Below are positions 34,818 to 49,494 of a stretch of DNA of 64,000 nucleotides, in pieces. The stretch's first letter is position 1; every line of letters begins with the position of its first letter. The DNA lies in NCBI GenBank assembly GCA_964276015.1, contig CAXYDO010000014.1:27199-91198 (forward strand), read 5' to 3'. Below the pieces are notes generated by a model. The model was given only the letters and a program-made list of their open reading frames with translations, was not told the origin of the DNA and did no database searches. This DNA is from an uncultured Alphaproteobacteria bacterium (GTDB lineage Bacteria > Pseudomonadota > Alphaproteobacteria > UBA6615). The translations under genes and the position numbers were made by a program.

Positions 34818-35597
34818 CTATGCCGGGGGGCGTGAGTGCTGGCCGCCGTCGACCATGATGACCGTTCCTGAGACCCAGGATGCCCGCGGGCTCGCCATGA
34901 AGGCGGTCACGGCAGCCAGTTCTTCTGACAGGCCGCCACGGCCACCGGGCAGACCACCCATGGTTTCGCGCCAGCGTTCGGCATCCCCGAACTGCTTTTC
35001 CGCATTGGCCTTTGCCAGCAGCGTGAAGCGCTCGGTTTGGGTTGGCCCCGGATTGACGCCCAGTACACGAACCCCATGGTTCATGCTTTCCGCGCCGATG
35101 GTGCGGGACATCTGCATCAGGGCGGCATTGCCCATGGAGCCGGCGATATAGGCGGAACGGCCGCGCTCACCCGCCATGCCGATGACGTTAATGATCACCC
35201 CGTTGCCCCGTTCGCACATGCGCGGATAGAAATGCCGGACCAGGCCAACGGTGCCGAACACCTTGAGCTGCCAGCCTTCCTTGATGTCGTCATCGCTCAG
35301 CTTTGCCAGATCACCGCCCGGGATGGCCCCGGCATTGTTGATCAGGATATCCGCGTCACCCGCGGCGTCAGAAAGCGCCTGCACAGCTTCCGGCTTGGCC
35401 AGATCCAACGCCTGGACGGTCGCTTCGGCGCCGAAACGCTGGCTCAGATCGTCACGCACCGCGTTCAGATCGGCTTCCGTGCGGGAGACAAGATGAAGGT
35501 CACAACCTTCCTCGGCGAGCACTTCGGCGATGGCCTTGCCGATGCCCTTGCTGGCGCCGGTGATGATGGCGGTTTTTCCCTGCAGACCGAGATCCAT
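34818..35597 (-). CDS. SDR family oxidoreductase, paralog 2
   Basis: Same architecture as 33947..34729. The start was set to the ATG (MDLGLQGKTAIITGASKGIGKA). Confidence 0.8.
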   Translation of the reverse strand: MDLGLQGKTAIITGASKGIGKAIAEVLAEEGCDLHLVSRTEADLNAVRDDLSQRFGAEATVQALDLAKPEAVQALSDAAGDADILINNAGAIPGGDLAKLSDDDIKEGWQLKVFGTVGLVRHFYPRMCERGNGVIINVIGMAGERGRSAYIAGSMGNAALMQMSRTIGAESMNHGVRVLGVNPGPTQTERFTLLAKANAEKQFGDAERWRETMGGLPGGRGGLSEELAAVTAFMASPRASWVSGTVIMVDGGQHSRPPA

Positions 35598-35822
35598 GAC
35601 GTTCCCCTGATTATGTGTGTAATTGTTGTCGGGGAAGCTAGGGGCGCACTGCCGGAAAGGCAACGAAAACCGGGGGATATCCCTTGCCAGCCCCGTGTAG
35701 CGGGTCTATAACCCCGCGAATTCGAAATACCAACGGTCCGGCCGGGCGATTTGTAACGCCCAGGGCAGCCTACCCGTTGAACCATACGCGCAAGCGTTAA
35801 CCCGCAATAAGCGAGGTCCAAA

Positions 35823-36029
35823 ATGCCCAAGATGAAGACAAAGTCGTCTGCCAAGAAGCGATTCAGCTTTACGGCATCCGGCAAAATCAAAATGAAACCA
35901 GCCGGCATGCGTCACGGCTTACGCAAGCGCTCTCAGTCGATGAAGCGCAAGGCGCGTAAGATTGGCCTCATCGCGAAATCCGATGAGAAGATCCTGAAGC
36001 CGATGATGCCCTACCAGAGAAAGGGCTAG
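35823..36029 (+). CDS. rpmI: 50S ribosomal protein L35
   Basis: [14 protein letters not shown]... 68 aa. Conserved. Confidence 0.9.
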
Positions 36030-36033
36030 CTCC

Positions 36034-36399
36034 ATGTCACGCGCAAAAAGCACAGTTCAGCGCCACGCACGGCGTAAAAAAGTCCTGAAAGCTGCCAAGG
36101 GTTATCGGGGCCGGAATTCCAAGGTTTATCGCGTCGCGAAAGAACGCGTCGAGAAAGGCCTGCAATACGCCTATCGCGATCGGCGGGTGAAGAAGCGCAA
36201 TTTCCGCGCGCTCTGGATCCAGCGCATCAACGCGGGTGTTCGCGAGCACGGGCTGACCTATTCTCTGTTCATGCACGGAATGAAGCAGGCTGGTATCGAG
36301 CTCGACCGTAAGGTTCTCTCTGATCTCGCCATTCGCGAGCCGGAAGCCTTCAAGGAAATTGTCGACCAGGCGCAGAACGCCCTCAACGCATCCGCCTGA
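36034..36399 (+). CDS. rplT: 50S ribosomal protein L20
   Basis: 121 aa. [13 protein letters not shown]...[12 protein letters not shown] is a conserved L20 sequence. Confidence 0.9.
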
Positions 36400-36442
36400 A
36401 ACGGGACCCAACAGGGTCTTCAGGAAGAGCTATCGGTGAATC

Positions 36443-37531
36443 ATGACCGCGCCTGACACGTCCGAGTTGCAGGAGTCTCTGCTCGCCGATGTGGCCTCGG
36501 CGCACAGCCTCGATACGCTCGAGGCTGTGCGTGTGTCAGCGCTCGGCAAGAAGGGTGCGATCACGGCTCAAATGAAGGGCCTTGGCCAGCTCGACGGGGA
36601 CGCCCGCAAGGAAGCTGGCCAGGCGCTCAACCGGGTCAAGGATGCGGTCCAGGAAGCGATCACCGCCCGTCAGGCGGCGCTCGATTCCGTCGCGCTGGAA
36701 AATCGGCTCGCCCATGAGACGGTGGATATCACCCTGCCGCCGCGCCAGCGCTACGAAGGTCATCTGCACCCGGTCAGCCAGGTCACCGAAGAGTGCATCG
36801 CGATCTTCGGTGAGATGGGCTTTACCGTCGCTGAAGGTCCGGATATCGAGGATGATTTCCATAACTTCACCGCGCTGAACATTCCGCCCGAACACCCCGC
36901 GCGGCAGATGCACGACACTTTTTATCTGAACGCCGAAGAGGGCCGTCCGGCCCCGGTGTTGCGGACCCATACGTCGCCGGTTCAGATCCGTACGATGGAA
37001 ACCTCAAAGCCGCCGATCCGGATCATCGCGCCAGGGCGCACCTATCGAAGTGATTCCGACGCGACCCACACGCCGATGTTCCATCAGATTGAAGCGCTGG
37101 TCGTCGACGAGACGACCCATATGGGCCACCTCAAGGGCTGCATTATTGATTTCTGCCGGGCGTTCTTCGATATCCCCGATTTGCCCGTGCGTTTCCGCCC
37201 GAGCCATTTCCCGTTCACCGAACCTTCCATGGAGGTCGATATCGGTTGTTCCCGTGAAGGCGGCGAATTGCGGATCGGTAATTTCGGCGAAGGTGCGGAT
37301 AACTGGCTGGAAATTATGGGTTCGGGGATGGTGCACCCTAAGGTGCTCGAATATGGCGGGATCGACCCGACCCGGTATCAGGGTTTTGCCTTCGGCATGG
37401 GGATCGACCGGATCGCGATGCTGAAATACGGCATTCCTGATCTGCGCACGTTCTTTGACGCTGACATCCGATGGCTCAAGCATTACGGCTTCGTGCCGCT
37501 GGCTGTGCCGTCGATGGTTCGCGGTTTGTAG
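36443..37531 (+). CDS. pheS: phenylalanine--tRNA ligase alpha subunit
   Basis: 362 aa with class II motifs ([22 protein letters not shown]). Confidence 0.95.
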
Positions 37532-37540
37532 GGGGCGAGC

Positions 37541-39934
37541 ATGAAGTTCACCCTCGGTTGGCTGAAAGACCATCTCGACACCGAAGCCTCGGTGGGCGAG
37601 ATCGTTGAAACCCTGATTCAAATTGGTCTGGAGGTCGACTCGGTCGACGACCCGGCCGCCGAATTGTCGGCATTCCGGGTCGCCCATGTGATCGCCGCTG
37701 AGCCCCATCCTGACGCCGACCGCTTGCAGGTCTGCACTGTCGACACCGGCGAGGGCACCGTCCAGGTCGTATGTGGGGCTCCCAATGCGCGCGCCGGCAT
37801 GAATGGCGTGTTCGCTCCGGTAGGCACCTGGGTGCCGGGCATCGAGGTTGAGCTAAAAGCAGCAAAAATCCGCGGCGTTGAATCCAGCGGCATGCTCGTT
37901 TCCGAACACGAAATGGGCCTGTCCGACGAACATGATGGCATTATCGAGCTGCCCGAAGATGCGCCGCTCGGGGTACCGTTCGCCGAAATTCTCGGCATCG
38001 ATGACCCGGTCATCGATATTGAACTAACCCCGAACCGGCCTGATTGTACCGGCGTGCGCGGCATTGCCCGCGACCTGGCAGCGGCTGGTCTGGGACAGTT
38101 TAAACCGTTTGAGGCAGCCCCGGTCGGGGGCGGCTATGCCAGCCCGGTGAACTGGGCGATCGCCGGGGACGGCAATGCTTGTTCTTACGTGGTGGGACGT
38201 CATTTCCGCGGCGTGACCAACGGCCCGTCGCCGAAATGGCTGCAGGACCGCCTGCGCGCGGTTGGGCTGCGGCCGATCTCTGCGCTGGTCGATGTGACCA
38301 ATTATGTCTCGCTTGATCTGGGGCGCCCGCTCCATGTTTTCGATACGGCCAAGCTGAAGAACGACACCCTAACCATGCGTCGCGCGAAAGACGGCGAGGA
38401 TTTCATGGCGCTGGTCGAGCGGGCGTGTACCCTCGACAGTGAAATGACGGTGATCGGTGACGGCGATACGGTCGAAGCTCTGGCCGGTGTCATGGGTGGT
38501 CTCGAATCCAGCTGCACCGAGGAAACAACTGACGTGTTCCTCGAAGTCGCACTGTTCGATCCGGTCTCGGTGGCCACCACCGGGCGCAAGCTGCAAATGG
38601 AATCGGACGCCCGTTATCGTTTCGAACGCGGCGTCGATCCGGAATCTGCTGAATGGGGCGCCGAAGTTGCCGCCCGTCTGATCATCGAGTTCTGCGGCGG
38701 CGAGACCAGCGAACCGGTGCGCGCCGGCGAGATGCCCAATTGGCAGCGCAGCGTCGAGTTGCGCGCCGACCGGGTCGCGACCCTGGGTGGGGTTGAAGTT
38801 CCCCATGCGCGCCAGGCCAAGATTCTCGAAGGTCTCGGGTTTGGGGTTTCGCCAAGTGATGCCGGCGTGTCCGCCGACGTGCCATCCTGGCGGCCTGATA
38901 TTGGTGGCGAAGCTGACCTGGTGGAAGAAATTACCCGCATTCACGGCTTTGACCGGATTGCACCGGTATCCCTGGATCGGGATTCTGCGCTTCCCGCTGT
39001 GGCGATCACTCCGGAACAACGGCGTGCGGGCAATGTCCGTCGCGCCCTGGCCGCCGAGGGTCTCGACGAGGCGGTCACCTGGTCCTTCATGGGGCGGGCC
39101 CAGGCCGAGCTGTTCGGTGAGGTCCCCGAAACCATGATGCTGGCTAACCCGATTTCAAGCGAGCTCGACGCCATGCGGCCCTCGATCCTGGGCAATCTTC
39201 TGCTCGCGGCCGGTCGTAACGCCGATCGTGGTTTTGGCGACCTCGGTCTGTTCGAACTCGGACCAGCCTATCGCGACACCAGCCTCGACGGACAGCAGCT
39301 CGTGGCAGCCGGCGTGCGCCGGGGAAATGTGGATCTGGCCCATTGGTCGGGCCAGGCACGCAGTGCCGATGCGCTTGATGCAAAATCAGACGCGCTCGCT
39401 GCGATCGAAGCCGCCGGTGCGCCGGCGGGGAATGTTCAGGTCAGCCGCGACGCGCCAGACTGGTATCACCCGGGTCGCTCGGGGGCGCTGCGCCTCGGCA
39501 AGAACGTGCTCGGCTATTTCGGCGAAATCCATCCCGCCGTGTTGCGCGGTCACGATGTGCGCGGCCAGGCGGTGGGCTTTGAGGTCTTCCTCGATAATTT
39601 GCCGCCACGCAAGAATAAGGGCTCGGCCCGTCCGGCGCTGCATCTGGAAAGCCTACAGCCGGTGCGCCGTGACTTTGCGTTCCTGGTGAACACGGATGTT
39701 CAGGCCGGTGATTTGCTGCGCGCCGCCCGCGGAGCCGAACGAGAAGCCATCACGGATGTCACGTTGTTTGATGTCTATGAAGGCAATAATGTTGAAGACG
39801 GCAAGAAGTCCCTGGCCATCCAGGTGACCCTGCAGCCGACCGAAGCCACATTCACCGATGCCGAGATCGAGGATATCTCTGCAAAGATCGTCGCAGCTGT
39901 CGAAAAAGTGACCGGCGGGACACTTCGGGGTTAA
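37541..39934 (+). CDS. pheT: phenylalanine--tRNA ligase beta subunit
   Basis: 797 aa with tRNA-binding, B3/B4, B5 and FDX-ACB domains. It immediately follows pheS. Confidence 0.95.
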   Translation: MKFTLGWLKDHLDTEASVGEIVETLIQIGLEVDSVDDPAAELSAFRVAHVIAAEPHPDADRLQVCTVDTGEGTVQVVCGAPNARAGMNGVFAPVGTWVPGIEVELKAAKIRGVESSGMLVSEHEMGLSDEHDGIIELPEDAPLGVPFAEILGIDDPVIDIELTPNRPDCTGVRGIARDLAAAGLGQFKPFEAAPVGGGYASPVNWAIAGDGNACSYVVGRHFRGVTNGPSPKWLQDRLRAVGLRPISALVDVTNYVSLDLGRPLHVFDTAKLKNDTLTMRRAKDGEDFMALVERACTLDSEMTVIGDGDTVEALAGVMGGLESSCTEETTDVFLEVALFDPVSVATTGRKLQMESDARYRFERGVDPESAEWGAEVAARLIIEFCGGETSEPVRAGEMPNWQRSVELRADRVATLGGVEVPHARQAKILEGLGFGVSPSDAGVSADVPSWRPDIGGEADLVEEITRIHGFDRIAPVSLDRDSALPAVAITPEQRRAGNVRRALAAEGLDEAVTWSFMGRAQAELFGEVPETMMLANPISSELDAMRPSILGNLLLAAGRNADRGFGDLGLFELGPAYRDTSLDGQQLVAAGVRRGNVDLAHWSGQARSADALDAKSDALAAIEAAGAPAGNVQVSRDAPDWYHPGRSGALRLGKNVLGYFGEIHPAVLRGHDVRGQAVGFEVFLDNLPPRKNKGSARPALHLESLQPVRRDFAFLVNTDVQAGDLLRAARGAEREAITDVTLFDVYEGNNVEDGKKSLAIQVTLQPTEATFTDAEIEDISAKIVAAVEKVTGGTLRG

Positions 39935-40198
39935 TGTCGGAGTTGATGTTGCCCACTATACGTTGTGGACAACGTGGTGACCGGGAGGATGGATCGTGCG
40001 CGGTCTTGTTACAGTCGGATCGAAAACGACTAAACAGTTGAATTATAAAACTAAAACAAGATTATGCGTGTGTCATAATTCGGGAGTAAGATGCTTTTCA
40101 GAAACCTCGATAATCCGAATATGACAGTTATCCCCATATCTCACAGACTGTATGTCAGTGGCTATGTCCCCCAACGTTCGAGCTTTGTTCCCCTCTAG

Positions 40199-42001
40199 AT
40201 GACCGATCTTTCCCATATCCGAAATTTCTCCATCGTGGCCCATATCGACCACGGGAAATCGACGCTGGCCGACCGCCTGATCCAGGAGTGCGGCGGGCTG
40301 ACCGAGCGCGAGATGTCCGAGCAGGTGCTCGACAGTATGGAGCTCGAGCGCGAGCGCGGGATTACGATCAAGGCCCAGACCGTGCGGCTGACCTACAAGG
40401 CCAAGGACGGCAAGACCTATCATTTGAACCTGATGGACACGCCCGGGCATGTGGACTTCTCCTACGAAGTCTCCCGCTCGCTGGCGGCCTGTGAAGGTGC
40501 GCTGCTGGTGGTTGATGCCAGCCAGGGGGTCGAGGCCCAGACGTTGGCGAATGCCTATCTGGCCATCGACGCCGGTCTGGAGATGGTGCCGGTCCTTAAC
40601 AAAATTGATCTGCCCGCCGCCGAGCCGGAACGCATCCGTCAGCAGATCGAGGATGTGATCGGGATCGATGCCTCGGAAGCTCTGATGATTTCGGCCAAGA
40701 CCGGCATCGGCATCCCCGACGTTCTCGAAGCACTGGTGACAGAACTGCCCGCGCCTGAAGGCGATGCGGATGGCGAATTACAGGCCCTGCTCGTGGATAG
40801 CTGGTACGATCCCTATCTGGGTGTGGTGGCGCTGATTCGGGTGAAGCATGGCGTCATGAAGAAGGGCCAGAAGATCCGCATGATGTCGTCGGGCCACTCA
40901 TATTCCGTGGATCGGGTCGGTGTGTTTACCCCGGCGCGGACCGAGACGGGTATTCTGGGCCCGGGGGAAATCGGGTTTATCACGGCGTCGATCAAGACCG
41001 TGTCTGATTGCAATGTGGGCGATACCGTCACCGATGATCGCCTGCCGTCGGCTGAGCCGCTGCCGGGGTTCAAGCCTTCTGTGCCGGTGGTGTTTTCTTC
41101 CCTGTATCCGGCAGACACCTCGGAATACGAAGATTTGCGCGCCGCGCTCGAACGCCTGCATCTCAATGATGCGAGTTTCGAATTTGAAGCGGAAAGCTCG
41201 GCGGCGCTCGGGATGGGTTTTCGCTGTGGGTTCCTTGGCCTGCTGCATATGGAAATCATCCAGCAGCGGCTCGAACGGGAATTCGACCTTGAGATCATCG
41301 CGACGGCACCTTCGGTCGTCTATCATATCTCCCTGACCGACGGGTCCGAGATCGAGCTCCATAACCCGACCGACTATCCCGACGTGACCCGGATCGCGGA
41401 GATCGAAGAGCCTTGGATCAAGGCGTCGATCATGGTGCCGGATGAATACCTCGGCTCGGTCCTGCAGCTTTGCACGGAGCGGCGCGGTGAGCAGCTCGAC
41501 CTGACTTATGTGGGCGGGCGTGCGATGGCGGTGTATCGCCTGCCGCTCAACGAGGTCGTGTTCGATTTCTATGACCGGCTGAAATCAATCAGCCGGGGCT
41601 ATGCGAGCTTTGATTACGAGCTCGATGAGTACCGTATTGGCAATCTGGTCAAAGTCGACATCATGGTGAACAGCGAGGTGGTCGAGGCCCTCTCCATGGT
41701 GGTGCATCGCGACCAGGCCGAGGCCCGTGGCCGCCATCTGTGTGAGCGGCTCAAGGATCTCGTCCCCCGCCAGCTCTTCAAGGTGGCGCTCCAGGCCGCG
41801 ATCGGCGGCAAAGTGATCGCCCGGGAGACCGTTGGCGCCATGCGCAAGGACGTGACGTCGAAATGCTACGGCGGTGACATTTCCCGCAAGCGCAAGCTGC
41901 TGGATAAGCAGAAGGCGGGCAAAAAGAAGATGCGCGCCTACGGCAATGTGGAAATTCCGCAATCGGCCTTTATTCAGGCCCTGCGGATGGGTGACGAATA
42001 G
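40199..42001 (+). CDS. lepA: elongation factor 4
   Basis: 600 aa. The G domain ([29 protein letters not shown]) and the LepA C-terminal domain are conserved. Confidence 0.95.
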
Positions 42002-42025
42002 GGCGTTTCCCGCGTCGCGACTGTC

Positions 42026-42337
42026 TTACTTGAACATGCCTTCTCGACGGACCCGCTTGCGGGTCAGGCGGACCAGCAGAATGCCCGGGATGCCGAGCAC
42101 CATGGTGGCCGGCCAGAGCAAGATCGTCACGACCACCGGATCCCAGAGCGCGGGCAGGACGTAACGTTGGGTGACCGCCTGCATCAGGTTCAGGCTGCCA
42201 TTGTCGAGGCGGAACCAGAGTTCCCCGGCTGAGATCAGGATGAGCGTGCCCGCGTCAATCGATGTCAGAATATCGCGCGCAAAAAGTACGACCGATGCGA
42301 TCACGAGAATCCAGCCTATGACACGCAAGATAATCAT
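42026..42337 (-). CDS. small integral membrane protein, hypothetical (103 aa)
   Basis: Only the C-terminal part of the track ORF 42026..42730 is plausible. The ATG is at 42337 (MIILRVIGWILVIASVV...) with 3 TM helices. The upstream part of that ORF is the antisense of the tRNA. Confidence 0.4.
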   Translation of the reverse strand: MIILRVIGWILVIASVVLFARDILTSIDAGTLILISAGELWFRLDNGSLNLMQAVTQRYVLPALWDPVVVTILLWPATMVLGIPGILLVRLTRKRVRREGMFK

Positions 42338-42497
42338 CGACTTATAAGCCCCATGTTCTGGTTTAGCGGTTTTGGTACGTAGGTATACTAAACCGCAGAC
42401 CGGGTGTCGGACACAAGGCTTACCCTGATGGGAATTGGTTAAAACACCAGCAGTTGCCAGTACAGGCCTTGTTCGGCTATGCACTCTTCGACGTGCC

Positions 42498-42587
42498 GGA
42501 GGGGTGGCCGAGTGGCTGAAGGCGCACGCTTGGAAAGCGTGTATGCGGGTGACCGTATCGAGGGTTCGAATCCCTCTCCCTCCGCCA
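42498..42587 (+). tRNA. tRNA-Ser (anticodon GGA)
   Basis: GGAGGGGTGGCCGAGTGGCTGAAGGCGCACGCTTGGAAAGCGTG-[long variable arm]-GAGGGTTCGAATCCCTCTCCCTCCGCCA. The 7-bp acceptor stem, anticodon loop TTGGAAA, long extra arm, T-loop TTCGAAT and encoded CCA all fit. Confidence 0.9.
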
Positions 42588-42633
42588 ACATTATCATGCA
42601 TTGTGAGATTCATCGCTTCGGCCAACTGGCCAT
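42576..42633. repeat. Left 58-bp direct repeat (attL core) covering the last 12 nt of tRNA-Ser plus 46 nt downstream
   Basis: CTCCCTCCGCCAA[C]ATTATCATGCATTGTGAGATTCATCGC[T]TCGGCCAACTGGCCAT recurs at 49437..49494 with 56/58 identity. Confidence 0.8.
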
Positions 42634-42775
42634 GTAGTTCGAGTTCGAACTGCCCGCGCTGTTGCGCTGGATGGGCTATGATACGGTCGACCAGTCCACG
42701 CAGCGCTGCGGAAGCTTCATCGCGTACCATTGGATCTGCATGAAGGGCTTCTGACAGGTTTGCGATCTTTTGCTT

Positions 42776-43114
42776 TTAGAGGTCGGCCGCATTGGGGTGC
42801 CACTCGATCGTTGTCGGTTCCTCGTCGTTGAACACCACAAGGTCCGAGAGCCTTGCCTCGAGTTTCCGTAATTTCTCGCCGATAGCTCCGAGCTCGTTGA
42901 CGGTACCTTCGGCGATGGCGTCGACGAGACGCGCAATCTGTCGTTCAAGGTTTGCCCTTTCCTTGGCGTGCGTGTTGCGTCGGCGACGTGCGTCCTTTTG
43001 CAGTCTTTGCAGTTCCGCGTGGTACTCGTCCACAAACGTTTGAACGAGTTCGGGCTCCATCAGCTTGTCTTTCAGCCCACCCAGCACACGGTCCTCTATG
43101 TCTTTGGCAGGCAT
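42776..43114 (-). pseudogene. Fragment of a large serine recombinase (coiled-coil region only)
   Basis: FVDEYHAELQRLQKDA...ERQIARLVDAIAEG...WHPNAADL matches the central coiled-coil segment of recombinase-family proteins. The catalytic N-terminus and C-terminus are missing. Confidence 0.4.
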
Positions 43115-43136
43115 GGTTCGGTTGTTGGTGCAGGTG

Positions 43137-43595
43137 CCCTTCTGGCGCGCGGTCGATTACGGAGGCGAGGTGCTCGAAATTTTCGCGACGAAACGCGGGG
43201 ATCGTAGGGCTGCCCTTCAGTTTCTGAAGCGCGCGATGAAGCGGTATGGACATCCGAAAGTGGTTGTCACCGACCGGCTTCGGTCATACCGGGCAGCGAT
43301 GAATGTGATCGGGAATGCCGCCGATCAGGAATACGGCCGCTGGCTGAACAACCGGGCGGAAAACTCACATCAGCCGTTTCGAAGACGGGAAGGGGCGATG
43401 TCGAAATTCAGGGGTGTAAAAACCCTGCAGAAATTCGCCGCCGTTCATGGTTCAACCTTCAACCATTTTAATCTCGACCGCCACCTCAACAGCCGCTCCG
43501 TCTTCAAACAGAACCGCTCCTCCGCGCTGGCCGAGTGGCGTCAACTCCTGGCGCTCGCTAATTCGAGTCTTTTATGGCTTTTAAAAAAAACATGA
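43137..43595 (+). mobile_element. IS6-family (IS26-like) transposase, 5'-truncated remnant (C-terminal ~150 aa)
   Basis: WRAVDYGGEVLEIFATKRGDRRAALQFLKRAMKRYGHPKVVVTDRLRSYRAAMNVIG...GRWLNNRAENSHQPFRRREGAMSKFRGVKTLQKFAAVHGSTFNHFNLDRHL is collinear with IS26 Tnp from about residue 95 onward. Confidence 0.6.
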
Positions 43596-43738
43596 GGTGA
43601 GGGAACAATTTGCTCCCTCACGTCTCAAAACTACGATAAATTTTTATTTGATAGTCGTTCTCAAAACCAAAGATTATCTTTATACGTATAGATCCACATG
43701 TAAATTTGGGTGCTATTTAACAACAAACAGGGAATATC

Positions 43739-44455
43739 ATGGATAAGTTAATTATGCTTAACCCCGCCGATTATGTTGGGGTAAGTTTTTGGATCATTTC
43801 AGCTGCAATGGTCGCCGCTACGTTTTTCTTCTGGGTTGAGCGTGATAGAGCGGTTGGCAAATGGAAAACGTCCCTTACGGTCGCCGCGATGGTAACTGGT
43901 ATTGCGGCCATTCATTATATGTATATGCGCCAAGGTTGGGTCTACACCGGTGAAAGTCCAACGGTCCTTCGGTACGTAGACTGGTTGCTAACTGTCCCGC
44001 TACAGATTGTTGAGTTCTACCTCATCCTGGCTGCAATGACGGCCGTTGCGACCGGATTGTTTTGGCGGCTACTCGTCGCCTCTTTGGTGATGCTGATTGC
44101 TGGTTATCTCGGTGAGGTAAATAGCGCCAATCCAACGGCACTGTGGGGATTCTTCATCGTTGGTATGGCTGGCTGGATTTACATCCTGTACGAAATCTTC
44201 GCAGGCGAAGCGAGCCGCATTAATGCAAGTGAAGGCACTGTCGCTGGCCAGAAGGCTTTCGGGGCACTGCGTTTGATAGTCACCGTCGGGTGGGCTATTT
44301 ACCCGCTCGGCTACATCTACGGATATGTCGGTGGCGGCGATGTCGCTGGGCTTAATCTGATCTACAACTTGGCTGATTTTGTGAACAAAATCGCCTTTGG
44401 AGTAGTGATCTGGGCTGCTGCAACGTCTGATAGCGCCAGCAAACCGGCTTCTTAA
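43739..44455 (+). CDS. proteorhodopsin (light-driven proton pump, DTE motif, predicted blue-tuned)
   Basis: 238 aa with 7 TM helices. RYVDWLLTVPLQIVEF carries the D97/T101/E108 equivalents with Gln at the position-105 equivalent. The Schiff-base Lys is in NLADFVNKIAFG. The protein is collinear with SAR86 GPR/BPR. No signal peptide is present. Confidence 0.9.
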   Translation: MDKLIMLNPADYVGVSFWIISAAMVAATFFFWVERDRAVGKWKTSLTVAAMVTGIAAIHYMYMRQGWVYTGESPTVLRYVDWLLTVPLQIVEFYLILAAMTAVATGLFWRLLVASLVMLIAGYLGEVNSANPTALWGFFIVGMAGWIYILYEIFAGEASRINASEGTVAGQKAFGALRLIVTVGWAIYPLGYIYGYVGGGDVAGLNLIYNLADFVNKIAFGVVIWAAATSDSASKPAS

Positions 44456-44471
44456 TAGTCTGGTAAATGTC

Positions 44472-44512
44472 AAGGTATGTCCGACAGCTGTCGGACATAC
44501 CTTACTTTTTTT
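44472..44512 (+). terminator. rho-independent terminator after the rhodopsin gene
   Basis: Perfect palindrome AAGGTATGTCCGACAG/CTGTCGGACATACCTT (44472..44503) followed by ACTTTTTTT. Confidence 0.7.
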
Positions 44513-44525
44513 AAGGGGGACCGTC

Positions 44526-44930
44526 TTGCACAGGCAATTTGCCAAGAGCTTTCGCGGGGCTACGGAGCAAGCCGTGCCGCGAGTTGGTACAACACAGAGA
44601 TCCGAAGAAGCGTTGGAAGAAGCGATAATAGCGCTCTTGCCCACGAAGAAAAGTTCGCTCTTTAAGGTAGCGCATTCTCATTTTAGCCAATTTGGTAAAT
44701 TACTACGTGGTCGTACCGCATGGGCGGTAAGTGAAGCCGTAACGCTAAGCCCGGCCTGCGCGCAAAATTGGGCCGCGCGGTTACAGGAACAATTGAACAT
44801 CTGCCGCCAAGAATGCGATGTTCTTCCGGTTCAGATTCAATCCGCATTGGCACCATTAGTAAACTATCTCGAGCACGCTACAACGTCCGTTCGAGCACGC
44901 GCGATGGATACTGCGCGTATTTGCGTTTGA
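44526..44930 (+). CDS. hypothetical protein (134 aa) in the slot normally occupied by crtE
   Basis: TTG-start ORF whose TGA overlaps the crtI ATG (TGATG). It shares the island's low GC. No recognisable family. Confidence 0.3.
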   Translation: MHRQFAKSFRGATEQAVPRVGTTQRSEEALEEAIIALLPTKKSSLFKVAHSHFSQFGKLLRGRTAWAVSEAVTLSPACAQNWAARLQEQLNICRQECDVLPVQIQSALAPLVNYLEHATTSVRARAMDTARICV

Positions 44931-46471
44931 TGGAGGCAACCAGAATTTCCGATATTACGCTCGACGCAGAAAACAGCGCGGGACGGGTCATCGTCATTGG
45001 TGGCGGTTTTGGGGGCATGGCTGCAGCTTTGCGTGCACGAGCGATGGGGTTCTCGGTAACTCTTGTTGAGCGGCTCGATCATTTAGGTGGTCGCGCTCAA
45101 GTTTTTGAGCGCGACGGCTTTAAACATGACGCCGGTCCGACTGTTATCACAGCGCCATTTTTGTTTGAAGAATTGTACCAATTATTCGGCGAGAACCTGA
45201 AAGATCACCTCACCTTCACACCACTAGAGCCTTGGTATCGTTACTATTTCCAAGACGGTCGAAGCTTAGACTATAGCGGTGATCAAGACCGAATGGCGGC
45301 CGAAATTAGCAAATTTTGTCCCGCAGACGTGGCCGGTTACGCCGCTCTAGTGGCCGCATCCCGAAAGATTTTTGACGTTGGCTTCACCCAATTAGCCCAT
45401 CGCCCATTCATCAATTTTGGCTCGATGGTTAGACAAATACCGGCGTTGCTTCGTCTCCGCGCAGACCGCTCGGTGAGCGGCCTAGTCGCCAAGCATATCC
45501 GTCACCCTTTATTGCGGCGCGCCTTCTCGATTCAGCCACTTTTGGTTGGTGGCAACCCTTTTACAACAACCTCTATTTATTCTCTAATCCATTACCTTGA
45601 GAGAAAATGGGGGGTGTCTTTTTGCATGGGGGGAACCGGTGCTCTGGTTTCGTCACTTGTGGATTTAATGGCTCGACAAGGTATCGAAATTTTCACTGGC
45701 GTCGACGTTGAGCGCATCGCTATATCAGGGAATAGTGCTAGCGGAGTCATTCTTGCGGATGGCCGCAATTTTCCTGCAGATCACGTCATTTGTAACGCAG
45801 ATCCACCAAACGTCTACCGCACACTATTGTCTGATGGGGGGCGCGTTGCGCGGCGTCGCAAACGCTTGCTTCCCGAGTCGATGACGAAATATTCTATGGG
45901 GCTTTATGTGCTTTTTTTTGGTACCCGTCGGAAATACCCGGAGGTAGCGCATCATACTGTCTGGCTGGGTCAAAGATTTAAGGAATTACTTGCTGACATA
46001 TTTGACCGCGGTCAGTTGTCAGAAGACTTTTCTCTCTACATCCACCGGCCAACTGCGACCGACCCTAGTTTCGCCCCGGAGGGATGTGACAGTTTTTATG
46101 TACTTTGCCCCGTGCCTAATTTGCAGACCGACCTAAATTGGCCGGTAGTCGGTGAAGACCTTCGCAACCGCATCGTTGAAGCTCTTTCGGATACTATATT
46201 ACCCGATTTAAAAAGTCATATCACAAGCGAATTCTGGATGGATCCCAATGATTTTCGAAATGATTACCGCTCTCATCACGGCGCAGGATTCTCAATCGCT
46301 CCAATTTTGCGCCAATCAGCATGGTTCCGTTATCATAACCGCGATCCACATATCGGAAATCTCTACTTCGTTGGAGCCGGCACCCACCCAGGCGCTGGCC
46401 TGCCCGGGGTTGTAAGCTCCGCCAAGGTGGTCGAAACACTGCTCCGCGAAAAATCTATCGCTACCGTCTGA
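44930..46471 (+). CDS. crtI: phytoene desaturase
   Basis: FAD fold RVIVIGGGFGGMAAALR and the CrtI-typical GGNPFTTTSIYSLIHYLE and YFVGAGTHPGAGLPGV motifs. The start was set to the ATG at 44930 (MEATRISD). Confidence 0.9.
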   Translation: MEATRISDITLDAENSAGRVIVIGGGFGGMAAALRARAMGFSVTLVERLDHLGGRAQVFERDGFKHDAGPTVITAPFLFEELYQLFGENLKDHLTFTPLEPWYRYYFQDGRSLDYSGDQDRMAAEISKFCPADVAGYAALVAASRKIFDVGFTQLAHRPFINFGSMVRQIPALLRLRADRSVSGLVAKHIRHPLLRRAFSIQPLLVGGNPFTTTSIYSLIHYLERKWGVSFCMGGTGALVSSLVDLMARQGIEIFTGVDVERIAISGNSASGVILADGRNFPADHVICNADPPNVYRTLLSDGGRVARRRKRLLPESMTKYSMGLYVLFFGTRRKYPEVAHHTVWLGQRFKELLADIFDRGQLSEDFSLYIHRPTATDPSFAPEGCDSFYVLCPVPNLQTDLNWPVVGEDLRNRIVEALSDTILPDLKSHITSEFWMDPNDFRNDYRSHHGAGFSIAPILRQSAWFRYHNRDPHIGNLYFVGAGTHPGAGLPGVVSSAKVVETLLREKSIATV

Positions 46472-46485
46472 GGAGAAATTCGATC

Positions 46486-47421
46486 ATGGGCTGCACCTTC
46501 GGTTCGAAATCAGCTGAAACGGCGGCGAATGAGATTCTCGCAGCGCATGGTAAGTCTTTCTACTGGGCGCGGCGCTTTTTAGGGCCCGTAGCGGCAAGAC
46601 AAGCGACCTTACTCTACGCCTTTTGCCGACGACTTGACGATATCGCGGATGCCGATAGTCCTGGCGGACTAGAACGTTTAAAAGCGATTGATGCGGCCCT
46701 CGCCGTGGGCGTAGCTGACGGCGATGATCACGTCGCCACATTTCTTTCTCTCAGCAGCGAAATCAATCTTCCCGTGAACGCGGCTCGCGATTTAATCGCC
46801 GGGTTAATTTTTGACCAGGGCGAAGTGCTTTTGGCTGATGAAGATGCTCTGATCGTTTACGCGTACCAGGTAGCAGGGACCGTTGGGCTAATGATGTCGC
46901 CAATCCTGGGGCGTCACGACCCCGTAGCCGACGCTTTCGCTATCGACTTGGGGATAGCAATGCAGCTCACTAATATAGCCCGTGATGTCGCCGAAGACGC
47001 TGACTTAGGTCGACGCTATTTACCAGCATCTTGGTGTGGCCCGATCAGCCCGTCAGAGATTCGCCTGGCGAGCGCTTCCCCTCTATCTCCTGGCAGAGAT
47101 GAAGTCGCGGTGGCCGTAGCCAAGGTTCTGGTTCAAGCTGAAACTTTCTACACCTCTGGTCTTGCAGGGTTGGCCTATTTGCCGATCCGCAATGATCTTG
47201 CGATTGGCATTGCGGCAACCGTTTACCAAGCCATTGGCCACCGTTTACGCCGACGCCGCTATGCCTGGTGGAAAAAGCGACAGGTAGTTGGTGTTAGCGG
47301 AAAAATTCTGGCTACTGGGGCAAGCCTGCCGCGGCTCTTTAGCCGCCGTGCGCCAGGCCCTCATGATGAACGGCTTCACCGAGCCTTGAAGGGAATCGCG
47401 AGTGTCGATGCCTTGCACTGA
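46486..47421 (+). CDS. crtB: phytoene synthase
   Basis: Squalene/phytoene synthase motifs: YAFCRRLDDIAD, YQVAGTVGLMM and DLGIAMQLTNIARDV. Confidence 0.85.
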   Translation: MGCTFGSKSAETAANEILAAHGKSFYWARRFLGPVAARQATLLYAFCRRLDDIADADSPGGLERLKAIDAALAVGVADGDDHVATFLSLSSEINLPVNAARDLIAGLIFDQGEVLLADEDALIVYAYQVAGTVGLMMSPILGRHDPVADAFAIDLGIAMQLTNIARDVAEDADLGRRYLPASWCGPISPSEIRLASASPLSPGRDEVAVAVAKVLVQAETFYTSGLAGLAYLPIRNDLAIGIAATVYQAIGHRLRRRRYAWWKKRQVVGVSGKILATGASLPRLFSRRAPGPHDERLHRALKGIASVDALH

Positions 47422-48541
47422 ACAGGCAGCCTATAGAACTGCCGTGATCGGTGGCGGTTGCGCGGGGCTGACACTAGCCCGCCACTTAACCGCTGCTGGA
47501 GTTTCGCCGCTGGCAGTAATTGATCCCGGCGCCAGCCGGCCGGATCATATCTGGGGTTACTGGGATGACGGCGGAGCTAATTTAAGTCTTCCGCGGCCGC
47601 TTTCTTCCGCCTCCTGGCGGCGCTGGGCGGTAATCACGGAACGTCAGAAAGTTGTGTTGAACGGCGATCGCTTCTGCTACAGGGCTCTCTCATCACAGCA
47701 TTATGAAGAGAGTTTGCGCTCGGATATATCGGGCAGTTCGGGAACGTTTGTTAACGCAACTGCCAAGAGTTGCACGCCAACGAAAGACGGTTTTCGACTT
47801 ACCTTGGACAATGATTTTGAACTGTCTGCCGAAGCGGTTTTTGATAGCCGTCCACCAAAACCACCAGTCGGCGCCTTATTACAGCATTTTGGCGGCTGGC
47901 ATGTGCGGATGGAGCGACCAGTTTTTGATACAAAAACTGCGATTTTGATGGATTTTAGAGTTTCCCAGGATGAGGGAATACACTTTATCTACCTGTTACC
48001 CTTTAATGCCGAACATGCCTTGGTTGAATCTACAGTGTTCTCTCCGACGCCCAAGTCGTCGGAGTGGTATGATAGTCAAATCAAAGCCTACTTGTCCGAG
48101 CATTACTCAGGTGTACAAGCCACCATCGAGGGTCGCGAGGCCGGCGTCATCCCGCTTGCGCCGCTAGTTTCTCCGAATTCTTTTGGCACCGCCATTGGGC
48201 TCCGCGCCGCAACGCATAGAGCCTCCAGCGGCTACGCTTTCTCACAAATTCAGATACAGGCGGCAGACTTAGCGTTAGACCTGATAGCGGATCGGCCTGC
48301 GTGTCCACGGCCCGGCTGTGACAGCTTCGAAGCTTGGATGGACAACGTCTTCCTCTCGGTCCTCCGCCGGTCCCCCGACCGCGCCCCGGAAATTTTTCTC
48401 CGCGCGGCGCGTGCCCTTACCGGGGACCAATTCGCTACTTTCATGCGTGGTCAAAGCGGCTGGCCCACTCGCCTCCGGCTAATGTCTGGCCTCCCCCTCG
48501 TATTATTCCTCAGCGCAGCTTTGGACAGAGGGTCGCGATGA
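47402..48541 (+). CDS. crtY: lycopene beta-cyclase
   Basis: N-terminal FAD motif VIGGGCAGLTLA and the CrtY-like FIYLLPF region. It overlaps crtB by 20 nt. Its stop overlaps the blh ATG (ATGA). Confidence 0.8.
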   Translation: MSMPCTEQAAYRTAVIGGGCAGLTLARHLTAAGVSPLAVIDPGASRPDHIWGYWDDGGANLSLPRPLSSASWRRWAVITERQKVVLNGDRFCYRALSSQHYEESLRSDISGSSGTFVNATAKSCTPTKDGFRLTLDNDFELSAEAVFDSRPPKPPVGALLQHFGGWHVRMERPVFDTKTAILMDFRVSQDEGIHFIYLLPFNAEHALVESTVFSPTPKSSEWYDSQIKAYLSEHYSGVQATIEGREAGVIPLAPLVSPNSFGTAIGLRAATHRASSGYAFSQIQIQAADLALDLIADRPACPRPGCDSFEAWMDNVFLSVLRRSPDRAPEIFLRAARALTGDQFATFMRGQSGWPTRLRLMSGLPLVLFLSAALDRGSR

Positions 48542-49342
48542 GCTGGGAGGTATTAATTCCAATGTTGATGGTTTTGTTAGTCGGGTTTCCCCATGGCGCT
48601 GCTGACGGAGTGTTAGCAGTCAATCTAGCACGTCGAGGGACCATCGGGCTCGGCGCATTTTTTGCACTTTACGGAGTAATCACTCTGTCCGCGGCGGCCT
48701 TTTGGTTGTGGCTGCCTGTGCTGAGTTTAATCAGTTTTCTGCTGCTGTCGGTGGTTCATTTTGGGACCCTCGATAGCAGGCACGACCGCCTTGTGGGCCG
48801 GCGCACATTACGTACCCTCGTCCATGGAAGCACCCTTATTTGTATAATTCCGTGGGCGCATGAGAGGGAAGTGACTGAAATCTTCGGGCTTTTAATCAGG
48901 TTCGGAGGTCGTGTGGCTGGTCCAAATCTTGGCTGCCGCCGCTCTGGCATGGGCTATCGGGGTAGTGTGGCTCGGCCTGGCCTTTGGCCCGGCCGGTCAA
49001 CGTGCTGCCGGAGAATTGATTGTAGTAGCAGCCGTTTTAATAATTTTGCCGCCACTCTGGGGGTTCGCTTTATATTTCTGCACCGTTCACTCTTGGCGCC
49101 ATATGAACGCAATTGTGGCCACGCTGGCCCCCTTCGGCCCAGCAGCATTTCGTTTGGTGGCTTTGCTCACACTGGTCAGTTTTCTGCTAGTCATTGCCGG
49201 GGCGCTCGTCTTGCCGGCAGTAGATATCGACAGCGGGGTTATCCGGGCGACCTTTATTTCGCTGGCAGCCTTAACTGTGCCTCATTTTCTCCTGATTGAT
49301 GTTTACCGCGTTTTGTCACGTCTTAGAGCTACTAGTCGATAA
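48538..49342 (+). pseudogene. blh: beta-carotene 15,15'-dioxygenase (Brp/Blh family), split by a +1 frameshift near 48880-48915
   Basis: The N-terminal half (MSWEVLIPMLMVLLVGFPHGAADG...SVVHFGTLD) is in frame 1 from 48538. The C-terminal half (WLVQILAAAALAWAIG...FCTVHSWRHM...LTVPHFLL) is in frame 2 (track ORF 48911..49342). Conserved His motifs are split across the two frames. Confidence 0.55.
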
Positions 49343-49436
49343 GAGCCGTAATGGACCGCCACCATCCCCTCGCCGGGCAGCCGGTTCTGCGACTACGCGA
49401 TTGTCTGATGTATCCACTGGCGTTGCCGACAGCACC

Positions 49437-49494
49437 CTCCCTCCGCCAAGATTATCATGCATTGTGAGATTCATCGCCTCGGCCAACTGGCCAT
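49437..49494. repeat. Right 58-bp direct repeat (attR core)
   Basis: Copy of the tRNA-Ser 3' end plus downstream sequence. See 42576..42633. Confidence 0.8.

Follow-up and report, generated by a model that had tools for sequence, protein, structure and literature searches.

The open reading frame between the proteorhodopsin (PR) gene and crtI in the 64-kb stretch of DNA analysed here (the window), which we refer to as orfX (positions 44526–44930, + strand; 134 codons plus TGA), is almost certainly crtE, the gene for GGPP synthase, carrying an in-frame internal deletion (ΔcrtE). The best explanation as a whole, to which we assign a probability of about 85%, is a decayed crtE that possibly still acts as a passive leader for crtI. 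orfX is an ordinary gene-decay allele, a pseudogene and not a new protein, and the case is one of routine gene decay in a horizontally moved island.

What speaks against this identity is that orfX by itself has no Pfam match (no family at E ≤ 0.1, and no match of its own to the PF00348 profile), and the assignment comes from comparison with relatives. Only two proteins were retrieved in a first protein search with the 134-aa product, both nearly identical to it (95% and 81%) and both from a PR-orfX-crtI context on short metagenome contigs. AlphaFold2, run on a 25-sequence alignment, yielded a model of loosely packed helices with residues 1–24 disordered (pLDDT 71, pTM 0.43), but this did not reveal the origin of orfX, as no PDB entry matched the model at E < 1 in a Foldseek search. 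The origin was found through the region upstream of crtI in related genomes, and then by a metagenome scan with alignment A1. Three relatives (L019, L003 and L026), whose crtI is 79%, 73% and 70% identical to that of the window, respectively, contain a gene of 341–355 aa between PR and crtI that encodes a PF00348 polyprenyl synthase (114–126 bits, the range in which the intact crtE alleles score). In BLASTP comparisons with the 355-aa CrtE-like protein of L019, residues 1–83 of orfX match residues 11–93 (52% identity, E = 5e-17) and residues 78–116 match residues 305–339 (62%, E = 1e-12), with about 210 residues missing between the two matches. A sequence-only reading of this DNA had recognised the 134-aa, TTG-initiated frame on the + strand and its lack of a DDxxD motif, both of which are confirmed by the translation. 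Its further statement that no frame of the slot resembles CrtE is wrong, since both ends of orfX align to the CrtE proteins of L019 and L029. It had also raised the question of where homologues of orfX occur: they were found in the PR-orfX-crtI setting, and only as the same deletion alleles, with at least 81% identity.

The correspondence extends to the DNA level in three further contigs (L029, L053 and L028) that are 93–97% identical to the window and whose slot holds a polyprenyl synthase of 346–350 aa (PF00348, 115 bits). By blastn, positions 1–509 of L029 match positions 44255–44775 of the window at 95% and positions 1134–2330 match positions 44755–45948 at 96%; L053 likewise aligns in two blocks with a gap, and L028 carries the same intact crtE sequence as far as its contig end. 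Over the 134 codons of orfX, protein identity to the intact L029 allele is 79–94%, compared with 93–97% for the surrounding DNA. The complete 350-aa crtE allele of L053 is a member of the P0083 cluster (32 sequences), named GGPP synthase by JGI, and among solved structures the intact allele is closest to the GGPP synthase of Pyrococcus horikoshii (1WY0, E = 7e-26). The intact allele aligns to 1WY0 over residues 26–252 and has the pattern LVHDDI.D.DE..RR in common with it, whereas the remnant in the window holds only the parts that flank this aligned catalytic core. Locus and flanking genes are the same for orfX as for the alphaproteobacterial PR-island CrtE proteins, both those of L053, L029 and P0083 and the more distant ones of L019, L003 and L026, and orfX thus descends from a trans-polyprenyl diphosphate synthase gene (PF00348) at the same locus. 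The gene order PR-crtE-crtI-crtB-crtY-blh is known from Roseobacter RCA and SAR116-related PR operons (PMC10675870) and is also found in related alphaproteobacterial PR islands (PMC9239080).

Compared with the 350-aa CrtE, the window retains codons 1–83 and 300–350 and has lost 648 nt (216 codons); in terms of L029, positions 509–1156 are gone, which correspond to codons 80–295 of 346. The N-terminal remnant (44526–44774, + strand; alignments A1 and A2) includes the conserved motif FGKLLRGR and is matched by L029 CrtE in tblastn at E = 7e-44, while the C-terminal remnant (44775–44927, + strand) is 94% identical to L029 residues 296–346 in the same search (E = 7e-26). The deleted stretch includes DDICD (L029 residues 93–97) and NDMLD (224–228), the two metal-binding motifs of the polyprenyl synthase class, together with nearly all of the Pfam domain. 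Neither the first Asp-rich motif (DDxxD or DDxxxxD) nor the second (DDxxD; NDxxD in this clade) is present in orfX. In their absence no GGPP synthase activity is expected of the 134-aa product, as it has lost the residues involved in Mg2+-mediated binding of the substrate diphosphate. One suggestion of the sequence-only reading was that the slot might be a scrambled remnant serving as the leader of the crt operon; it is a remnant, but not a scrambled one, as the first 83 and the last 51 codons of crtE are cleanly joined in it. The second metal-binding motif of the intact CrtE proteins of L029, L053, L019 and L026 reads NDxxD (NDMLD or NDILD), unlike the usual DDxxD, and that of L003 CrtE reads NDIRN.

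The deletion junction in the window (junction 1) is located at 44774|44775 (GGGCC|GCGCGG), with a 3-nt microhomology, CCG, common to both parental sides. It coincides with the right end of an imperfect direct repeat of about 20 nt that is present in two copies in the intact gene (L029 490–509 and 1135–1157; positions 231 and 876 of the L053 gene), 645 nt apart (CTGCGCGC-AAAATTGGGCCG and CAGCGCGC-TTGAAATTTGCACCG). The N copy (CTGCGCGCAAAATTGGGCCG; 44756–44775, + strand) is retained, and the whole first copy is likewise kept in L001, L041 and P0047–P0052. A second junction type (junction 2) is found in L002 and P0053, which keep the whole second copy (…TGCGCGC|TTCAAATTTGTACCGCGCGG); here the deletion is 645 nt long, the crossover lies within GCGCGC, at the left end of this repeat pair, and the diagnostic sequence is TGCGCGC|TTCAAATTTG. 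From this arrangement we infer that slipped-strand or illegitimate recombination involving the two copies of the repeat gave rise to the deletions. Both junction types are in frame, in part because of the geometry of the repeat pair (645/648 nt spacing).

Collapse of a full-length crtE during assembly of the window, as an artefactual source of the deletion, can be dismissed for practical purposes. Cassette-bearing contigs do often break here, suggesting strain heterogeneity, but junction 1 recurs in independent JGI, ENA and Fram Strait assemblies (L001, L041 and P0047–P0052), the second junction type is present in two ENA contigs, and the repeat, at about 20 nt and imperfect, is not long enough for an assembly to collapse on it. 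Among related contigs in public metagenome assemblies, intact crtE alleles are found alongside deleted ones.

Junctions 1 and 2 are not interconvertible by a few substitutions. They could represent two separate deletions, a case that is made by the junction sequences alone, or they could stem from one event, in which a heteroduplex with mismatches in the repeat was left unrepaired and gave two alleles on segregation. In a distance and informative-site analysis that took in the window, L001, L002 and L029, the window differs by 3.9% from intact L029 and by 6.2% from L002, in an unrooted tree with mosaic signals across PR, orfX and crtI and a long L002 branch. Since crtE holds 99 other exact 6-mer repeat pairs of comparable spacing, the location of both junctions in one pair suggests that this site is a hotspot, that the two have a common origin or that only certain deletions survive. 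The junction-1 deletion (P0047–P0052) was also observed on both N-terminal haplotypes, one reading …EEALEEAITALLP… and the other, shorter by four codons, …EEAITELLP…, and intact crtE is likewise found on each of the two (L028/L053 and L029), which suggests that alleles have recombined or that the deletion has happened more than once.

The block from PR to blh (43625–49343) has a G+C content of 53%, as against 60% in the rest of the window, and is 93–98% identical on contigs whose flanks are unlike those of the window: L001 differs on the left, L044–L049 and L052 on the right, and L053 has a third left flank. The flanks of the window itself are also present on L041, L050 and L051. The cassette therefore looks as if it has recently been exchanged horizontally among lineages, with the deletion allele present in at least two genome backgrounds.

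Substitution patterns differ between orfX and its neighbours. Comparing the window with L001, which has the same junction, orfX shows six nonsynonymous to two synonymous changes (omega 0.94), whereas crtI shows 0 to 16 over 484 codons (omega 0), a contrast with a Fisher p-value of 2e-4 that is based on small substitution counts for orfX. The comparison of orfX with L002 gave 24 to 13 (omega 0.56). Between the intact alleles of L028 and L029, the N-terminal part of crtE has four to eight (omega 0.14) and the central part two to three (omega 0.21); between the window and L044, crtY has 10 to 15 (omega 0.21) and blh five to five and four to four (omega 0.33–0.37). On these counts orfX appears to drift with little or no constraint at the protein level and its neighbours are constrained, with the proviso that junction 1 sits on several haplotypes also seen with intact crtE, so that recombination or recurrence may blur the changes that followed the deletion. 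The PR gene differs between the window and L001 by five nonsynonymous (I5V, A10T, G137V, V141I and P236Q) and two synonymous changes, a high proportion beside the 0 to 16 of crtI, in small numbers.

Instead of routine decay, the crtE deletions might be recurrent loss-of-function alleles favoured by selection at a repeat-mediated hotspot. If so, they would shut down GGPP and carotenoid flux within the cell without ending the delivery of ribosomes to crtI. The population would then include retinal producers with intact crtE and, in a 'Black Queen' type of division of labour, cells with deleted crtE that take up retinal or its precursors made by others. Two junction types in one repeat pair despite the 99 others, the recurrence of the same junction on several haplotypes, the presence of the deletion in at least two different flanking genome contexts and the strong constraint on crtI between two deletion carriers are all consistent with this idea, which we nevertheless consider unlikely, and we retain ordinary gene decay as the explanation of the deletions.

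Whether the decayed gene has kept a role depends on how crtI is translated. The TGA of orfX (44928–44930) and the ATG of crtI (44930–44932) overlap by one base, 44930, as the sequence-only reading had noted, and the resulting TGATG (44928–44932, + strand) is identical in the intact allele of L029. No Shine-Dalgarno-like purine run was detected within 25 nt upstream of the crtI ATG; such a motif is present before PR, crtB, crtY and blh, leaving crtI as the only cassette gene without one. orfX itself is preceded by a Shine-Dalgarno-like stretch (AAGGGGGA; 44513–44520, + strand) 5 nt ahead of the TTG, as read from the sequence, which is reduced to GGGGA in L002. The true start codon is uncertain, since an alternative GTG at codon 17 (44574–44576, + strand) has GGAG 6 nt upstream and was chosen by gene callers for several alleles, comprising an intact 334-aa call and deletion alleles of 114 and 118 aa. 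Directly 3' of PR there is an intrinsic-terminator-like hairpin with a 14-bp stem and a 4-nt loop followed by seven T (44472–44512, + strand; hairpin proper 44472–44503, RNA fold −32.5 kcal/mol, z −4.9), which is unchanged in L001, L002 and L029 despite varying flanks and leaves no space for a promoter ahead of orfX. An Rfam search of positions 43500–45100 revealed no RNA family in the orfX slot.

The start region of orfX is the same as in intact L029 crtE, and this region and the TGATG overlap have evidently been inherited from the intact gene. With its overlapping stop and start codons and a crtI start that lacks a Shine-Dalgarno sequence, orfX has sequence features of a translationally coupled upstream cistron. 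Because the native ribosome-binding region and the TGATG are kept and the crtI start has no Shine-Dalgarno-like sequence, orfX is most likely still translated, passively, and translation of crtI would rely on ribosomes finishing the upstream cistron by termination-reinitiation. The in-frame deletion would preserve this delivery of ribosomes, which an out-of-frame deletion would not, and the sole remaining effect of orfX would be to supply ribosomes to crtI without polarity on crtI-crtB-crtY-blh. In its TGATG overlap and its downstream start without a Shine-Dalgarno-like sequence the orfX-crtI pair resembles operon genes translated by termination-reinitiation, but it differs from other coupled genes in that the upstream cistron would be a dead gene, for which no role other than bringing in ribosomes is plausible. 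We regard the chances that orfX retains this role of a passive translated leader as evenly balanced. The earlier suggestion of an operon leader is therefore roughly right, although the basis given for it, the lack of a CrtE-like frame, was wrong.

The remnant may instead be inert, without any residual role, its frame being open only because the deletions are recent and multiples of three and crtI being translated independently; we consider this possible but the less probable of the two. The omega of about 0.9 within the deletion lineage and an in-frame outcome that is set by the 645/648 nt repeat spacing are both in line with an inert sequence, but the crtI ATG that overlaps the orfX stop and has no Shine-Dalgarno-like sequence of its own is not, and about ten distinct deletion alleles, which diverge by up to about 6–7% in DNA across the region, are all open to the same stop, with the difference at the L002 junction also in frame. 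All deletion alleles recovered as proteins share this stop, and as they came from gene calls they are biased towards open frames. The Fram Strait contig L041, which is 99.3% identical to the window and has the same host flanks, contains four 1-nt indels at positions matching 44474, 44764, 44836 and 45107 of the window. Two of these would break orfX (44764 and 44836) and one crtI (45107), which would agree with an inert pseudogene, but all lie in the last 800 nt of the contig, where there are no substitutions, and they may be either real decay or long-read assembly errors. A final point on the side of inertness is that blh is already broken in this genome (see below), so that coupling to crtI may be irrelevant here. 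On balance we prefer a decayed crtE that may still pass ribosomes to crtI.

The other suggestion of the sequence-only reading, a novel accessory or regulatory protein, is very improbable. On this view the 134-aa product would have gained a function of its own, such as that of a non-catalytic subunit pairing with a different prenyltransferase. The frame has been kept open and its product is predicted to be all-helical, and there is a general precedent in the heteromeric plant GPP synthases, which contain non-catalytic prenyltransferase subunits without Asp-rich motifs. Yet only the two ends of the fold are left, the model has a pTM of 0.43 with residues 1–24 disordered and no fold match at E < 1, omega is 0.56–0.94, and the homologues are near-identical deletion alleles from one crtE lineage. 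An in-frame crtE deletion whose homologues are deletion alleles and whose evolution is near neutral offers no support for a new protein, and orfX should be annotated as a crtE pseudogene with an internal in-frame deletion and not as a hypothetical protein.

The remainder of the cassette, in the order PR, orfX, crtI, crtB, crtY and blh, is largely intact. The PR gene (43739–44455, + strand; 238 aa, Pfam Bac_rhodopsin 1.8e-46) encodes an intact rhodopsin with the retinal-binding (Schiff-base) lysine and the carboxylate residues in place (DWLLTVPLQIVEF and NKIAFG), and glutamine at the spectral-tuning position (VPLQIVEF) suggests blue absorption. Phytoene desaturase (crtI, 44930–46471, 513 aa), phytoene synthase (crtB, 46486–47421, 311 aa) and lycopene cyclase (crtY, 47402–48541, 379 aa), all on the + strand, are full length as judged by Pfam and by full-length alignment to relatives. 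The beta-carotene dioxygenase gene blh (48538–49342, + strand) is broken by a 1-nt insertion, a C at 48897 that is not in a homopolymer (TTTTAAT[C]AGGTTCGG). Alignment to homologues places Blh residues 1–126 in one frame and residues 121–261 in the next, and the final two conserved histidines (FCTVHSWRH) are thereby shifted out of the reading frame. An uninterrupted blh of 267 aa is present in nine related contigs (L044–L052), including L050 with the host flanks of the window, and the deposited annotation of the source contig lists a truncated Blh product of 253 aa. The insertion may be genuine, or it may reflect an error of sequencing in the source assembly. Exact-protein look-ups found no record for the crtB product of the window, the frameshifted Blh or P0004.

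The island thus lacks an intact crtE and an intact blh beside its intact crtI, crtB and crtY. The earlier statement that crtE is missing from the cassette holds in so far as no intact gene is present, but its slot is occupied by a crtE remnant and not by an unrelated frame. tblastn searches of the 64-kb window with E. coli IspA, Pantoea CrtE and L029 CrtE detected no other polyprenyl synthase; with the first two queries, which were entered by hand, not even orfX was matched. As judged from its gene content, the cassette would no longer supply its own GGPP. The proposal that GGPP is provided from elsewhere is partly overtaken in this genome by the frameshift in blh, and since crtE is deleted and blh frameshifted, the island as sequenced is unable to produce retinal, and its de novo synthesis has probably been lost. 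If the blh insertion is real, the first and last steps of the pathway are both broken, and the intact PR would depend on an external supply of retinal or else be on its way to being lost as well. An intact rhodopsin gene accompanied by a retinal pathway that is short of a step recalls the acI Actinobacteria, in which crtEBIY are present and blh is widely absent, a situation reported to impair pumping (PMC5301498). In contrast to acI, the gaps in the window are visible as fresh lesions (the crtE deletion and the blh frameshift) in a cassette that is complete in other respects, and contigs closely related to the window carry intact alleles. With both crtE and blh damaged, this genome should not be scored as retinal-producing, and a tally of PR genes, or of crt genes adjacent to PR, gives too high an estimate of the capacity for light-driven proton pumping that is independent of external retinal. 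The polymorphism of crtE alleles, which is measurable by read mapping, is relevant to the question of whether cells with PR produce retinal themselves.

Further observations concern the edges of the island. A fragment of an IS6/IS240-family transposase (DDE_Tnp_IS240, 176 aa, 43065–43595) is located just upstream of PR. In the comparison with L041 the host DNA at 35238–42775 is 100% identical, and all 61 substitutions fall in 42776–44437, which covers the IS and PR; this sharp change in divergence suggests recombination or different IS copies. The transposase fragment and the whole PR-crt-blh cassette are bracketed by a 58-nt direct repeat (42576–42633 and 49437–49494; 97% identical, 6861 nt apart), which may be a trace of the insertion or rearrangement of the block. 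An open reading frame of 234 aa without a Pfam match (42026–42730, − strand) adjoins lepA; its counterpart in L041 was called as 353 aa, with a 5' part that enters the region beside the IS fragment, and the frame may be disrupted in the window. On the other side, 41 nt of the window (49439–49479), overlapping the right copy of the 58-nt repeat, stand in place of 432 nt in L050 (1516–1947) that encode the C-terminal end of an amidase (PF01425, 5e-20), so that the right-hand border of the island shows a second rearrangement.
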